Source: Actinomycetota bacterium | GTDB lineage: Bacteria > Actinomycetota > UBA4738 > HRBIN12 | NCBI GenBank assembly: GCA_036519575.1 | Contig: DATDKZ010000162.1 | Span: 1,628-65,627 of the forward strand | Direction of reading: 5' to 3' | Length of the DNA: 64,000 nucleotides | In this document: positions 4,372-56,788 of the stretch, piece by piece | Layout: each line of letters starts with the position of its first letter | Position numbering within the stretch: position 1 is the first letter of the stretch | Notes under the pieces: generated by a model | The model's input: the letters and a program-made list of their open reading frames with translations, nothing else | Told to the model about the DNA's origin: nothing | Databases searched by the model: none | Translations under genes and position numbers: made by a program

Positions 4372-5669
4372 TGCGTGCCGATGCACTCCTGGAGGTTCGT
4401 CGCGGCCTGCACGAGCGGCTGCTTCGTCGGGTCGATGCTCGTGGACTGGAGGAGGTGTCGCGAACCGAGCGGCGTCTGCGGGTGCGCGAGGAGGCACTGG
4501 CCATCCTCCGCGAGGAGAGGCACATCCTGCCGCGGGGTGTGCTGACGAAGGTCATCAACGAGGTTTCGGATGCGGTCGTCGGGCTGGGACCCATCGAGTT
4601 CCTGCTCAAGGATCCCGAGGTCACCGAAGTGATGGTGAACGGGCCCGACGACGTCTACGTGGAGCGGAAGGGGCGGCTCGAGAAGGTGACGGACGGTCTG
4701 TTTGAGGGGGAGGAGGCCGTCCTGCACGTGATCGAGAGGATCGTGGCCCCGCTCGGCCTTCGGGTCGATGAGTCATCACCTTGGGTGGATGCGCGACTGT
4801 CGGACGGCAGTCGGGTGCACGCGATCATCCCGCCCCTTTCGCTCTGCGGTCCCACGCTGAACATCCGCAAGTTCTCTCCCGTGCCCTTCACGCCGGAGGA
4901 ACTCCTGGCGAGAGGAACGCTTGGGCCACGCGCGCTCAGATTTCTGGCCGCCTGTGTTCGAGGTCGGGCGAACCTGATCGTCTCGGGAGGAACGAGCTCG
5001 GGCAAGACGACATTGCTCGGCGTCTTGTCCACGTTCGTCCCCGACGAGGAACGATTGGTGACCATCGAGGATGCGGCTGAGCTCCGCCTGGTCAAGCCAC
5101 ACGTCGTCTCGCTCGAGGCGCGTCCCGCGAACGTGGAGGGCAAGGGCGAGGTGACCGTGCGCGACCTGGTGAGAAACGCGCTTCGCATGCGGCCGGACCG
5201 GATCATCGTGGGTGAGGTTCGAGGGGGAGAGGCCATCGACATGCTCCAGGCCATGAATACCGGCCACGATGGATCGCTGTCGACGGCTCACGCGAACTCA
5301 CCTCGCCATCTTCTTTGGCGGCTGGAGACCATGGCGATGATGTCGGACGTCGGGCTGCCGGTCGGTCACGTGCGCGCGCAGGTGGCCTCGGCCATCGACG
5401 TCATCGCGCACATGGCCCGATTGCCCAGCGGACGACGAGTGGTTCTCGAGGTGGCGACCGTCGATGGGATCCACGAGGGGCAACCCGTCCTCACGCCACT
5501 GTTCCGGTTCCGCCCCCGGCTCGGTACTCATGGCTTGTTCGAGTCGACCGGGGTCGTCCCCGAGGTGGCGATCCAGCTCGCAGACGTCGGGGAGGACCTC
5601 CCCGAGGAGCTGTTCGCCCCAGGGCCAGATGGGGACACGTTCGAGGTCGGAAACGTGGAGAGCGGATGA
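4371..5669 (+). CDS. tadA: TadA/CpaF type II/IV secretion ATPase
   Basis: 432 aa: Walker A GGTSSGKTTLLGVL plus Asp/His boxes of the VirB11/CpaF family. Start overlaps the tadZ stop (ATGA). Confidence 0.9.
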   Translation: MRADALLEVRRGLHERLLRRVDARGLEEVSRTERRLRVREEALAILREERHILPRGVLTKVINEVSDAVVGLGPIEFLLKDPEVTEVMVNGPDDVYVERKGRLEKVTDGLFEGEEAVLHVIERIVAPLGLRVDESSPWVDARLSDGSRVHAIIPPLSLCGPTLNIRKFSPVPFTPEELLARGTLGPRALRFLAACVRGRANLIVSGGTSSGKTTLLGVLSTFVPDEERLVTIEDAAELRLVKPHVVSLEARPANVEGKGEVTVRDLVRNALRMRPDRIIVGEVRGGEAIDMLQAMNTGHDGSLSTAHANSPRHLLWRLETMAMMSDVGLPVGHVRAQVASAIDVIAHMARLPSGRRVVLEVATVDGIHEGQPVLTPLFRFRPRLGTHGLFESTGVVPEVAIQLADVGEDLPEELFAPGPDGDTFEVGNVESG

Positions 5670-13278: not shown

Positions 13279-13917
13279 CTACTCGATGAGACGCCGGCGG
13301 AGCGCCTCGGCAACCGCCGCCGTGCGGTCGGACGCCCCGAGCTTCTCGAAGATGTGCTCGAGGTGGGTCTTCACCGTGTCGGGCGAGATGTACAGGCGCT
13401 CGGCGATATCCCGGTTGGTGTGTCCGAACGCGAGCAGCTGGAGGACCTCGATCTCCCGCGCCGTGAGCGTCTCCGCCTTGCGGTCGCGCTCCTTGGCCTG
13501 TGACAGCTCCTCCGCCAGAGCCACCACGAGTTGGGGGTCGATGACCATGTTTCCCCCGGCGACCAGGCGAACGGTCTGGATGAGGTGCTCGGCGTCGCGG
13601 GCTTTCAGCACGTAGCCCCGCGCTCCGGACCGAACCGCCTCCACCACGAACTGGCGGTCGTCGTAGGCGGTCAGCATGATCACGCCGACCTTCGGGAAGC
13701 GGTCACGGATCAGCCTGGCCGCCTCCAGGCCGTCCATCTCCGGCATCCGGATGTCGACCAGGGCGATGTCCGGTTTTTGCTGCTCCACGAGGTCAAGGAG
13801 CTCCTGGCCGTTCGACGCCTCACCCACGACCTCGATGCCATCCGCCATGTCGAGGTATCGGCGAAGGCCCTGCCGAACCAGCGAGTGGTCGTCCGCGATG
13901 CCTACACGTATGGTCAC
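13279..13917 (-). CDS. LuxR/NarL-family response regulator
   Basis: REC domain with IADDHSLVRQG plus a C-terminal LuxR HTH. GTG start preceded by GGAGGGAG. Confidence 0.85.
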   Translation of the reverse strand: MTIRVGIADDHSLVRQGLRRYLDMADGIEVVGEASNGQELLDLVEQQKPDIALVDIRMPEMDGLEAARLIRDRFPKVGVIMLTAYDDRQFVVEAVRSGARGYVLKARDAEHLIQTVRLVAGGNMVIDPQLVVALAEELSQAKERDRKAETLTAREIEVLQLLAFGHTNRDIAERLYISPDTVKTHLEHIFEKLGASDRTAAVAEALRRRLIE

Positions 13918-14203
13918 CCGAGGCTCCCTCCGCCCACGGCCCGACTCCCTGGCCCATCCTATATGTCGGCCCGGCCGGCCTAAAGATGTAGTAACAATCT
14001 TGGCGAGCCCCTGACCAGGGGAGAAGCTCATCCTGCCAACCTGCTGGCAACCGGGTGACCCGCGAGAGCTCTCGATCACGTCGTGGTCTCAGAGCCGCGA
14101 TCCGAGTGACCTCTCGGTGACGCGCATCCTATTCATCCGCCGCAAGAGGACCGGTCTTTTGCAGGTGATCCTTTTTGGCCGAATGGCCTATCCCAGGAAC
14201 GAA

Positions 14204-14256
14204 GGTCCGCTGCTACCCTCGGGGGACAGAAGAATCCCCCGAATGGGGGAAGGACC
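14204..14256 (+). promoter_or_regulatory. Structured RNA-like element: GGUCC/GGACC outer stem enclosing two mutually exclusive G5/C5 hairpins
   Basis: CGGGGGAcagaagaaUCCCCCG and CCCCCGaauGGGGG share the same C5 run. Lies in a lower-GC pocket 20 nt upstream of the small-ORF GTG. Confidence 0.25.
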
Positions 14257-14276
14257 GAAAGAAGGGAAGGCACAGG

Positions 14277-14402
14277 GTGAACACTCATCTCCCCGCGCTG
14301 TGGATCGCATTCGCCGTGGCTGCGGCGCTCGTAATATTCCTGGTCGTTCACACAGCCCTGGAAGCCTTCTCCCAGACCAGCAGCCTGCTGGCAGGCACGT
14401 AG
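14277..14402 (+). CDS. Small membrane peptide (41 aa from GTG; 75 aa if the ATG at 14175 is used)
   Basis: VNTHLPALWIAFAVAAALVIFLVVHTALEAFSQTSSLLAGT gives a single TM helix. GAAGGGAAGG lies upstream of the GTG. Rare codons (GTA ATA) suggest atypical composition. Confidence 0.3.
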   Translation: MNTHLPALWIAFAVAAALVIFLVVHTALEAFSQTSSLLAGT

Positions 14403-14460
14403 TCGCTTCGAGCACCTCCAGGGCTCCAACCGTCGCACGGTGAACCGAGGCGGACGCGGC

Positions 14461-15618
14461 TTAGAAGATGTAGTACCAGTTCACGAACAGCACCACGAGA
14501 AGCGCGAGCCCGGCGGCCCCCACGGCGGCTACGGCCTTCTCGGGGATGCGCCATCGCTCGGTGAGCTCCGCCAAGGCCCAGAACGCCGGGAAGAGGGGAA
14601 GAACGAACCGGGGCATCGACATGAGCGGGCGGTCGGCGAACACGAACGAAAGCGGGATCAGCAGGCCGCCCCACAGGTACACCGAATACGCGGGTCGGTA
14701 CCGGAGCAAAGCGAAGACCGATGCTCCGACCACCGGCACAACGATCAACCAGTCGATCAGCCAGTACCCCCCGTTCGCGTTCCCCAGGTACCGGAACGCA
14801 TCGCGTGTGCCATCGACAACGGTGGCCCACGGCGAGGAGAACGTGCGCTGCCAATTGGCCTGCTGGTCGATGGGAGCCAGCCAATCGCCCACCTTCGCCC
14901 ACCAATATGCGAGGTAGGCAAGCGTGCCGAGCCCGACGGCCACCGCCGCCACGAGACCCGGCAGGACCGACCCGCGACCCTCGCTTCGCTGATGGAAGGC
15001 CTCCACGACCAGGGCAGGCGCCAGCACGATCCCGACGTTCCTGGTCAGGGCGGCCAGCGCCCCGGCGGCGCCGGCCGCCGCCCATCTCCGGGATCTCGCC
15101 GCCCAGAAGGTCGTCGCCGCAAGGAGCAGGAACAACGACTCGCTGTAGGGAGCAAAGAAGAAGAAGGACGTGGGAAACAGCGCGACGAGCAGGACGGTCC
15201 GTCGTGCCGTCGCGATCGAGCGCTCCGACGCCGTAAGGGCGTACACCACGCACAGCCCGCATGCGATCGCGGCGTTCGAGACCAAGAGCGCGGCCCCGAA
15301 CGGGTGGCCCCCCATGACCCACGAGACCGCCCGGATGGCCAGTGGGTACAACGGAAAGAAGGCAGCGCTCCCGTCACCTGTCCGGTACCCGCTCGAGGCG
15401 ATCCGCAGGAACCACAGCGCGTCGAAACGTTCGAAGCTGGTGAAGGCGTTCTGCCATCCGGGGTCGGGAAGGGGCTGCGCTCGCCAGCCGGGGACCGAGA
15501 CGGGCTTGAGCGGAGGGAACAGCTCGACGGCCACGAGCCCGAGGATCAGCAGCCCCAAGCGCACCGCGAGGAAGACCGCCAGGCTGTAGCGGATCCCCTG
15601 CCGTGACTCGGGCCTCAC
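14461..15618 (-). CDS. GT-C fold polytopic membrane glycosyltransferase (PIG-V/Mannosyl_trans2-like)
   Basis: 386 aa from GTG, about 9 TM helices, FFPLYPLAIRAV motif. The GTG overlaps the upstream gene's stop (GTGA). Confidence 0.6.
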   Translation of the reverse strand: MRPESRQGIRYSLAVFLAVRLGLLILGLVAVELFPPLKPVSVPGWRAQPLPDPGWQNAFTSFERFDALWFLRIASSGYRTGDGSAAFFPLYPLAIRAVSWVMGGHPFGAALLVSNAAIACGLCVVYALTASERSIATARRTVLLVALFPTSFFFFAPYSESLFLLLAATTFWAARSRRWAAAGAAGALAALTRNVGIVLAPALVVEAFHQRSEGRGSVLPGLVAAVAVGLGTLAYLAYWWAKVGDWLAPIDQQANWQRTFSSPWATVVDGTRDAFRYLGNANGGYWLIDWLIVVPVVGASVFALLRYRPAYSVYLWGGLLIPLSFVFADRPLMSMPRFVLPLFPAFWALAELTERWRIPEKAVAAVGAAGLALLVVLFVNWYYIF

Positions 15619-50271: not shown

Positions 50272-51170
50272 CCGAAGCTGCAAAGCTCCGGACCAGGGGC
50301 AAGGTTCGCGACATCTACGACGCGGGGGACGATCGCCTGTTGCTCGTGGCCACCGACCGTATCTCCGCGTTCGACGTCGTTCTTCCCAACCCCATCCCCG
50401 ACAAGGGCAGGGTGCTGTGCGGGCTCTCGCTGTTCTGGTTCGGCAAGACAGGGGATGTCGTCGGCAGCCACCTCCTGAGCGCCGACCGGCAGGACTTCCC
50501 CGAGCCGTTCCGGGGCGACCCGTCACTCGCCGGCCGGTCCATGCTGGTCCGCAGGGCGAAGGTGGTCCCGGTCGAGTGCGTCGCCCGGGGGTACCTGACC
50601 GGGTCGGGGCTCAAGCAGTACCTGGCCGAGGGCCACGTGTGCGGGGTGCCGCTCCCGCCGGGTCTGGGTGAGGCCGATCGGCTGCCAGAGCCCATCTTCA
50701 CGCCCACCACGAAGGCCGCGGAAGGGCACGACCTGCCGCTCACGTTCCAAGAGACCGCGGACCTGGTGGGCGAGGGCCTCGCCGAGCACCTCCGCGAGTT
50801 GACTGTTGGTCTGTACGAGCGAGGGGCGGAGATCGCGCGTGAGCGCGGCATCATCGTGGCGGACACGAAGTTCGAGTTCGGGTTCGCCGGCGGCGATCTG
50901 ATCCTGGTGGACGAGGTGCTCACACCGGACTCTTCTCGTTTCTGGCCGGCGGACGGTTACGCGCCCGGCACCCCACAACCGTCGTTCGACAAGCAGTACG
51001 TCCGGGACTGGCTCGATGCGAGCGGATGGGATCACGAGCCGCCGCCCCCGGACCTCCCGGCCGGCGTGGTCGAGCGGACTGCACGTACCTATCGGGAGGC
51101 TTACGAGCGGATCACCGACAAGAGGTTCGACTGGTACCGTCGGCGCATGGGAGTGTCTGACCGGGGATGA
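50268..51170 (+). CDS. purC: SAICAR synthetase
   Basis: GKVRDIYD…LLLVATDRISAFDVVL; GTGA overlap with purB. Confidence 0.9.
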
Positions 51171-55778: not shown

Positions 55779-56788
55779 GCGGCGCCTACCGCAGGGCGGG
55801 CGTCGACCTGGAGGCTGCGGGCAGAGCCGTGACGCTCATCCGAGAGCTGGCCAAGAGCGCGACGCGGCCCGAAGTCCTCGAGGGGGTCGGCGGCTTCGCC
55901 GGGCTGTTCCGGATCGGGGAGGGACGGTACCTCGCCGCCGCCACGGACGGGATAGGGACGAAGCTCGACGTGGCGCGGATGGCCGATCGCCTGTCCACGG
56001 TCGGTATCGACCTCGTAGCCATGTGCGCCGACGACGTGGCGTGCACTGGGGCCGAGCCGCTCTTCTTCCTCGACTACCTGGCGACGGGGAACCTCGTCCC
56101 GGAAGAGGCCGCGGCCATCGTCGAAGGGATCGCCGAGGGCTGCCGGCGTGCCGGGTGTGCGCTCCTCGGCGGCGAGACGGCCGAGCATCCCGGCGTGATG
56201 GCCGAGCGGCAGCTCGACCTGGCGGGGTTCTGCGTGGGGGTCGTCGACGACGAGGGGCTGATCGGGCCTCACCGCGTCCTCGAGGGCGATGTGCTGGTCG
56301 GCCTGGCCTCGAGCGGCGTGCACGCGAACGGATTCAGCCTGATCCGTTCCGCGCTCCTGGTGGAAGGTCCGCAGATGCTCGACGCCGTGCCGGACGGCTT
56401 CCACCGATCCCTGGCCGACGAGCTGCTCGAGCCGACGGTGATCTACGCGCCACTCGTCGTGTCGCTCGCGCGCGGCGGACTGGTGCACGCGGCCGCGCAC
56501 GTGACCGGAGGCGGCCTTCCGGAGAACGTACCTCGTGCCCTCCCCGGTGGACTTGGGGCCGAGATCGATCTCGGCAGCTGGGCCGTTCCCGCGATCTTCG
56601 AGCTGGTACGCACGGCGGCGGACGTATCGGACAACGACATGTTCGCCACGTTCAACATGGGCGTGGGAATGGTGCTCGTGGTGCCGCCGAGCCGGGCGGA
56701 CGACGTGATCGGGCAGGCCGCCGACGCCGGCATCCAGGCCTTTGGGATCGGGCGCGTGGGCGTGGGACCTGGGCTCTCCCTGCGTTAG
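55775..56788 (+). CDS. purM: AIR synthetase (phosphoribosylformylglycinamidine cyclo-ligase)
   Basis: GTGA overlap with purF; YRRAGVDLEAAG…GGFAGLF motifs. Confidence 0.9.
   Translation: MSGAYRRAGVDLEAAGRAVTLIRELAKSATRPEVLEGVGGFAGLFRIGEGRYLAAATDGIGTKLDVARMADRLSTVGIDLVAMCADDVACTGAEPLFFLDYLATGNLVPEEAAAIVEGIAEGCRRAGCALLGGETAEHPGVMAERQLDLAGFCVGVVDDEGLIGPHRVLEGDVLVGLASSGVHANGFSLIRSALLVEGPQMLDAVPDGFHRSLADELLEPTVIYAPLVVSLARGGLVHAAAHVTGGGLPENVPRALPGGLGAEIDLGSWAVPAIFELVRTAADVSDNDMFATFNMGVGMVLVVPPSRADDVIGQAADAGIQAFGIGRVGVGPGLSLR

Follow-up and report, generated by a model that had tools for sequence, protein, structure and literature searches.

A predicted gene for a 41-residue single-pass membrane peptide and its rigidly spaced upstream block in uncultured Actinomycetota

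Among the small membrane proteins of bacteria, MgrB, AcrZ, KdpF and CydX cross the membrane once and modulate larger membrane proteins. Proteins of this type have approximately 30–50 residues and one hydrophobic helix, and are encoded by short stand-alone or operon-embedded open reading frames (ORFs) with a ribosome-binding site (RBS) of their own; annotation frequently misses or mis-calls them. Small hydrophobic peptides are also encoded by the type I toxin-antitoxin modules Hok/Sok, Ldr, TisB/IstR and Fst, in which a conserved 5' untranslated region (UTR) accompanies the ORF in varying gene contexts, and the riboswitches and other cis-regulatory leaders collected in Rfam can present a conserved block of about 100 nucleotides (nt) just before an ORF, with G/C-rich complementary runs. 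Such traits of peptide and leader recur at a locus in a 64,000-nt stretch of DNA from an Actinomycetota bacterium (GenBank assembly GCA_036519575.1, contig DATDKZ010000162.1, positions 1,628 to 65,627 of the forward strand), which is called the window hereafter and to which the coordinates refer. Its plus-strand positions 14175–14409 are best read as an autonomous, monocistronic gene whose product is a 41-residue single-pass membrane peptide, a peptide that shares with the MgrB type even the tendency to be missed or mis-called. Genes for small membrane proteins that have a conserved control region are a known kind; neither this family nor its upstream motif has been described.

The ORF at 14277–14402 appears, from its pattern of change among relatives, to be a conserved coding gene. 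Its length was 40–43 codons in all 19 sequences checked, this being the only frame open in all 19, and swaps of the start codon between GTG and ATG and of the stop codon between TAG and TAA left it intact. No indel was seen inside the ORF among close relatives, and the leader alongside contained indels that are not multiples of three. The G+C contents at the first, second and third codon positions were 0.65, 0.42 and 0.82, as compared to 0.65–0.75, 0.37–0.52 and 0.87–0.90 in the neighbouring genes, and variable columns were most frequent at the third position (18, 13 and 25, respectively). Because its non-synonymous divergence among close relatives (dN, ca. 0.10) was much above that of the neighbours at a similar synonymous divergence (dS, ca. 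0.2–0.36), the small ORF was judged to evolve fast, mainly by hydrophobic-for-hydrophobic swaps in the N-terminal half; the neighbouring regulator was 100% identical in protein sequence (dS 0.21–0.26) and the two glycosyltransferases were 92% identical (dS 0.18–0.23). A preliminary description of the window had already proposed that a GTG ORF encodes a small peptide of 41 amino acids (aa) with a single transmembrane helix, which agrees with its conservation as a gene in relatives. The rare codons GTA and ATA that the same description pointed out are present; they are not a conserved feature, relatives using GTC and ATC.

Mechanically, the frame 14175–14402 can also be called as a 75-aa ORF with a TTG start, in which the 41-aa ORF is nested in the same frame. 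This 75-aa call and longer ones of 96–116 aa were rejected as artefacts of a translated leader, in which the indels are not multiples of three. Public gene calls in this peptide family are often over-extended (75–116 aa), the leader being open in frame, and it was the over-long calls in distant members (P0010–P0021; P-numbers are labels of proteins or subfamilies, L-numbers of the loci or contigs of relatives) that first revealed the conservation of the leader there.

When the 41-aa peptide served as the query of a protein search, nine metagenomic homologues with identities of 63–95% were obtained, almost all of exactly 41 aa, and three Actinomycetota metagenome-assembled genomes (MAGs) in a set of species-representative genomes also carry the gene. 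An exhaustive profile search of 1.84 billion representatives gave 13 clusters at 50% identity, and a word-indexed profile search of a 5.8-billion-protein set gave at least 93 clusters (90% identity), all of 40–43 aa. The lowest identity to the window peptide was 42% in the 93-cluster set and 39% in the 13-sequence alignment. The members, all annotated as 'hypothetical' and without a Pfam domain, have the consensus MNTxxPxLRIAFAAAAAxxIFLxVHxALEAFSxxAxVLAG with F21, V24, H25, A27 and L38 invariant, and their sole organism label is 'Actinomycetota bacterium'. The family, which is undescribed and comes from uncultured Actinomycetota of soil, has so far been found only in metagenomes and in MAGs labelled Actinomycetota; it is unnamed, has neither a Pfam nor an Rfam entry and lacks a cultured representative. 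A literature search for the peptide motif returned nothing relevant.

The hydropathy of the window peptide peaked at 2.69 over residues 6–24, and AlphaFold predicted a single helix over residues 4–40 (pLDDT 90). The peptide would be expected to insert as one helix with residues ca. 6–24 in the bilayer, the conserved VH-x-AL-(E/Q) segment would sit at the membrane edge, and the most likely mode of action would be binding to another membrane protein as a partner. Searches of Pfam, NCBIfam and the PDB with the peptide family found no fitting family, and a PDB sequence search with the peptide itself gave no match. The top library match of the window peptide was the heme exporter subunit CcmD (PF04995/TIGR03141), to which the likeness consists of length and a single transmembrane helix. 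The score (E = 0.0013, 19.2 bits) was under the gathering score of 25.6, one of 13 members matched, and a Pfam scan of six flanking window genes showed none that is Ccm-related; the match is a hydrophobic chance match. Membership in KdpF was also rejected (E = 0.16, below threshold). In contrast to MgrB, AcrZ, KdpF and CydX, to which the family has no sequence relationship, the unit has no conserved partner gene beside it, and the family is confined to uncultured Actinomycetota.

Upstream of the ORF, a block of approximately 105 nt is conserved in sequence and in rigid spacing, not in pairing, as judged from a comparison of 21 distinct leaders from seven peptide subfamilies, the DNA of four of which was fetched after over-long calls. 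Mean pairwise identity among close relatives was 76% in the upstream flank (14057–14160), 94% in the leader (14177–14249), 60% in a variable patch (14250–14258), 94% in the RBS block (14259–14276; 82% versus L005), 88–91% in the ORF and 63% in the downstream flank (14413–14460). The conservation of the leader, the RBS and the ORF is clearly beyond chance, unlike the fold. Across the 21 leaders, the architecture was TTGGCC-N8-TATCSC-N19-TACCNT-N1-2-GGGGGA-N8-11-TCCCCC-N3-5-GGGGG-N23-37 (including the Shine-Dalgarno sequence)-start. The N8 and N19 spacers were constant in length in 21 of 21 leaders and free in sequence, unlike the hairpin loops and the linker (23–37 nt), which varied in length; the loop between the first G-run and the C-run (8–11 nt) varied in both length and sequence. 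The TTGGCC box forms the upstream edge of the conserved block, and L005 could be aligned from this box on. The Shine-Dalgarno-like GAAGGGAAGG that the preliminary description had noted ahead of the GTG ORF is present within the well-conserved RBS block.

The upstream block moves together with the ORF. Homologue contigs share the order regulator (minus strand), ORF (plus strand) and mannosyltransferase (minus strand), except for L005, whose flanks are unrelated, and in different lineages the block and the ORF were found together beside unrelated genes. A DNA pattern made from the leader only matched seven metagenome contigs, and a 41-codon ORF followed every match. The unit is mostly divergent from the upstream gene, and no co-directional gene follows within 80 nt. 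No partner gene was common to all contexts; two-component systems occur close by in many cases, but these genomes are rich in them. The earlier view of the peptide gene and its upstream element as one unit has therefore held up, since both are kept in relatives, distant members and other gene contexts included, and travel together into unrelated neighbourhoods. The coordinates of the unit and of its neighbours are given in Table 1.

Table 1. Features of the small-ORF unit and its flanking genes in the window
Feature	Positions	Strand	Remarks
TTGGCC box, T-run before it	14175–14180	+	21/21 leaders; always 8 nt before TATCSC
TATCCC box (consensus TATCSC)	14189–14194	+	TATC invariant; 19 nt to TACCNT in 21/21
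GGTCC, 5' arm of closing stem	14204–14208	+	seen in sequence
TACCCT, candidate -10 hexamer of TANNNT type	14214–14219	+	+25 from TATC in 12/12 representatives
GGGGGA, G-run 1 (G5 14221–14225)	14221–14226	+	conserved 1–2 nt after TACCNT
TCCCCC, C-run common to both candidate hairpins (C5 14236–14240)	14235–14240	+	invariant, 21/21
GGGGG, G-run 2, 3' arm of hairpin B	14245–14249	+	6/7 subfamilies; degenerate in L043
Variable linker patch	14250–14258	+	indels not multiples of three
GGACC, 3' arm of closing stem	14252–14256	+	inside variable linker patch
Shine-Dalgarno-like sequence	14261–14270	+	6 nt before GTG; purine-rich Shine-Dalgarno sequence in all subfamilies
41-aa peptide gene	14277–14402	+	GTG start (read as Met), TAG stop; product MNTHLPALWIAFAVAAALVIFLVVHTALEAFSQTSSLLAGT; one transmembrane helix
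TCGCTTC tail (mostly CCGCTTC in relatives)	14403–14409	+	short, conserved after stop; conservation stops there
LuxR-type response regulator	13279–13917	-	left-hand neighbour of gap
PIG-V-like mannosyltransferase	14461–15618	-	right-hand neighbour, followed by GT87 glycosyltransferase gene

We lean, with moderate confidence, towards a self-contained small-membrane-protein gene that has its own rigidly spaced promoter/operator and a short, hairpin-bearing 5' UTR. The promoter/operator would consist of TTGGCC, N8, TATCSC, N19, TACCNT as the -10 hexamer and GGGGGA as the discriminator; transcription would start near 14226, and the 5' UTR of ca. 50 nt would have a CCCCC-GAAU-GGGGG stem-loop close to its start, then a variable linker and lastly a strong Shine-Dalgarno sequence. 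Spacers of constant length and free sequence, combined with hairpin loops and a linker of variable length, argue for a reading of the promoter type. Moreover, TACCNT was the only TANNNT common to all 12 representatives in the 190 nt upstream of the ORF. In mycobacteria, TANNNT is the preferred SigA -10 element, located 6–13 nt upstream of start sites and lacking an obvious -35 consensus (PMC6448022). Promoters are strengthened, by way of sigma region 1.2, when a GGGA element directly follows the -10 (PMC3526302). The block resembles an actinobacterial SigA-type promoter in the fixed position of its TANNNT, in the GGGGGA 1–2 nt later and in its rigidly spaced upstream boxes, and it lacks a canonical -35, like most mycobacterial promoters (PMC6448022). 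A point of difference is that its GGGA lies 1–3 nt away from the site that was tested in Thermus. If TACCCT is the -10, the TATCCC box would lie at about -37 to -32, making it a candidate -35-region or regulator site. G-run 1 may serve as a G-rich discriminator together with the start-site region, or else as the 5' arm of hairpin A, the hairpin that it could form with the C-run.

Several observations weigh against this interpretation. A generic sigma-70 scan found no promoter at the small-ORF unit, which is expected because TATCSC is poor as a -35; this poor -35 is itself a point on the other side. The G6/C6 inverted repeat with its variable loop length is more RNA-hairpin-like than operator-like. 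Judged by eye, the pair flanking hairpin A shows one compensatory change from C-G to U-A (L036/L037) and a U.G in L020, and the bases of this pair fall upstream of the proposed start site. The near-invariant G5/C5/G5 runs would be equally expected from three-way alternative pairing. As for the peptide, the median dN/dS of the ORF among close relatives was 0.76, below 1 but high, and therefore the protein-level constraint is modest outside the C-terminal half. Lastly, the assignments of the promoter and of the start site, the part ascribed to the hairpin and the existence of a partner for the peptide are inferences.

The boxes were compared by eye with consensus sequences of ECF sigma factors, sigma-54, SigF/SigB and WhiG, none of which fits, and TTGGCC-N8-TATCSC matches no sigma or regulator motif that we could name. 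A second exact match to TATCSC-N19-TACNNT was found in the window at 55924–55954 on the minus strand (0.01 expected per window), and a weak partial nhmmer match to the leader profile at 51108–51143 on the plus strand. Both are inside long ORFs with the other boxes absent and are probably due to chance.

The alternative that survives best, although we consider it somewhat unlikely, is that the whole block of ca. 105 nt is transcribed as a cis-regulatory RNA, in which C5 pairs alternately with G-run 1 (as hairpin A) and with G-run 2 (as hairpin B) and thereby alters access to the Shine-Dalgarno sequence or mRNA stability in response to a ligand, a protein or temperature. In favour of this, the G5, C5 and G5 runs are retained in six of the seven subfamilies around variable loops; hairpin B of the window (CCCCC-GAAU-GGGGG, -9.1 kcal/mol) has GAAU, GAGA, GAA, AAGU, AAAA or GAACA as its loop across subfamilies. 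Under the structure of the preliminary description, which had enclosed the two competing hairpins in a closing stem GGUCC/GGACC, 96% of cells were paired in hairpin A, 94% in hairpin B and 64.8% in the closing stem. The pair flanking hairpin A occurs as C-G, U-A and U.G, a three-way constraint would account for the unvarying runs and suppress covariation, and, because the minimum free energy (MFE) structure of the window pairs the CCC of TACCCU with G-run 2, a two-state model can be drawn.

The fold itself was not beyond chance: its MFE was -33.5 kcal/mol (z = -1.55), and 15 of 200 shuffles folded as well. Hairpin A was 4.4 kcal/mol more stable than hairpin B, whose probability at equilibrium was essentially zero. 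Nor did covariation in relatives support an RNA fold. No pair in hairpins A and B had changed on both sides, the consensus structures from RNAalifold had covariation terms that gave no support (+0.06 at -9.9 kcal/mol with 21 sequences and +0.59 at -7.2 kcal/mol with eight sequences), and the covariation scores of 0.060–0.062 were reached by 48–64 of 500 shuffles. Hairpin A is broken without compensation in L011 and L012 (GGGTGA), and L043 is without hairpin B. Rigid spacers of free sequence, such as N8 and N19, are atypical for RNA helices. The closing stem is present in the window (z = -1.78, p = 0.056 versus shuffled spacers) but not conserved beyond composition, its 3' arm lying in the indel-rich patch, and it was rejected as a conserved P1 helix (Stouffer p = 0.32 with composition-preserving shuffles). 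A first test of cognate against non-cognate spacer-linker duplexes was suggestive (p = 0.023), but the signal was gone against these shuffles and in an exact permutation including G-run 2 (p = 0.10).

The riboswitch or attenuator architecture suggested earlier found no support in its other parts either. Rfam gave nothing at gathering score in the window, the only match at E ≤ 10 over 13850–14550 was a chance miRNA on the other strand, and five further subfamily loci had no match in Rfam 15. On the plus strand no U-run follows hairpin B, hence there is no attenuation terminator tail. A conserved leader ORF upstream is likewise missing: relatives have lost the ATG at 14183 (GAAAGA), and no upstream frame is conserved because the indels at 14250–14258 are not multiples of three. 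No conserved helix sequesters the Shine-Dalgarno sequence, whose pairing partners differ between subfamilies. Unlike riboswitches, the block therefore has no Rfam 15 match, no covariation and no expression platform in the form of a terminator or a Shine-Dalgarno-sequestering helix. That it represents a new class of cis-RNA, in which an invariant G5-C5-G5 three-way toggle gates the translation of membrane peptides of ca. 41 aa and which forms with them a module that is portable, occasionally duplicated and possibly toxin-like or a stress switch, we regard as unlikely.

Two other candidate pairings in the leader were examined and rejected. A GGCC-GAAU-GGCC hairpin (14177–14188) has its middle pair broken in 16 of 21 sequences. 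A long-range UAUCC/GGGUG pairing from RNAalifold has a standard pair in 21 of 21 sequences at three of its five positions and in 20 of 21 at a fourth; with two compensatory and four broken cells at the fifth, it was judged to be chance. In the P0066 subfamily (L020, ca. 4970–5000), the predicted fold pairs the Shine-Dalgarno sequence GAGGAGG with an adjacent anti-Shine-Dalgarno-like CCUUCUC, a lineage-specific translational lock that is absent from the window leader.

The preliminary description had also raised a type I toxin-like module, an idea that has the size and hydrophobicity of the peptide as its only basis. Under this explanation, which we regard as improbable, a membrane-damaging peptide would be held off at translation by its 5' UTR and an antisense RNA. 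The peptide is indeed small and hydrophobic with a single transmembrane helix, a conserved 5' region is tied to the ORF, and the unit is portable between gene contexts, all of which recalls Hok/Sok, Ldr, TisB/IstR and Fst. One lineage may also carry two near-identical copies: in P0066 (L020–L029; ORF at 5001–5129 in L020–L025), an identical 42-aa gene, with ca. 317 nt of upstream and more than 110 nt of downstream sequence identical, occurs in the flank combinations A-X, B-X and A-Y, which implies that one genome has two copies some 10 kb from each other or that the two have recombined, and the copy in L023 is followed by an IS21 element (IstB and transposase). In contrast to the known modules, the window unit is present in a single copy in the 64 kb (nhmmer scan). 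Synteny is stable in its own lineage. The dS of the ORF (ca. 0.2–0.36) equals that of its neighbours (0.18–0.26), and therefore an overlapping antisense RNA adds no detectable constraint; no minus-strand promoter or element is conserved downstream of the ORF, although an antisense RNA limited to the leader, with its 94% identity, might still exist. No toxin model in Pfam or NCBIfam matches, and the family was absent from the viral contigs and plasmids searched. Its polar C-terminal motif with an invariant His is conserved and looks less like a generic pore former than like a surface for interaction.

Highly improbable, and already contradicted by context-independent conservation, is a locus without a function of its own, in which the ORF is a chance frame and the conserved sequence serves the minus-strand neighbours, either by terminating the glycosyltransferase operon or as a promoter for the response-regulator operon. 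The position between these operons and the terminator-like score of the minus-strand CCCCCATTCGGGGG followed by ATTCTTCTGTC might speak for it. Against it, the block and the ORF recur without either neighbour (L005, L019, L020–L044) and the ORF keeps its length, start, stop and third-position G+C pattern down to ca. 40% identity. As an intrinsic terminator of the glycosyltransferase operon, the terminator-like minus-strand sequence was rejected separately; in other subfamilies its tail is not rich in U.

Small membrane proteins are under-annotated and often prove to be regulators of sensor kinases, transporters or respiratory complexes. The family of at least 93 clusters now has boundaries, invariant residues and a linked upstream control region with precise boxes. 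The box architecture gives annotators a rule for correcting over-extended gene calls, and the block with its ORF offers experimenters a compact, reporter-ready unit. If the block is a promoter/operator, as we favour, the rigid TTGGCC-N8-TATCSC boxes would point to a regulator that is conserved across these lineages; if it is an RNA switch, the G5-C5-G5 element would be a new regulatory motif.

The small-ORF unit is housed in a gap of 543 nt (13918–14460) between two minus-strand genes. The G+C content of the gap is 63.0% as compared to 68.4% in the window, and only ca. 1% of equal-sized windows are equally low, so that the low-GC pocket described earlier is real. The unit was also said to be the sole plus-strand unit in a minus-strand region, which is true from 11048 to ca. 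18487, and all the sequence features that the preliminary description listed were found where it had placed them. There is a 4-nt overlap (15615–15618) between the mannosyltransferase gene and the GT87 gene. This glycosyltransferase pair is flanked by two separate two-component pairs, and the whole arrangement is syntenic in L001.

A direct repeat, AAGATGTAGTA[A/C]CA, brackets the small-ORF unit at 13983–13996 and 14465–14478. The copies are 482 nt apart and identical at 13 of 14 positions, for which a rough hand estimate gave a chance of ca. 0.05. Upstream of the response regulator, the first copy is part of a block that hardly varies, and relatives retain it; the second encodes the C-terminal end (WYYIF*) of the minus-strand mannosyltransferase. 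The repeat could be the scar of an old duplication or insertion. The block upstream of the LuxR-type regulator, CCCATCCTATATGTCGGCCCGGCCGGCCTAAAGATGTAGTAACAATC (13940–14000), is almost invariant in relatives, in which nearby intergenic DNA diverges, and probably serves the regulator-kinase operon as its promoter or operator. A related motif, CATCCTAT, recurs at 14122–14141.

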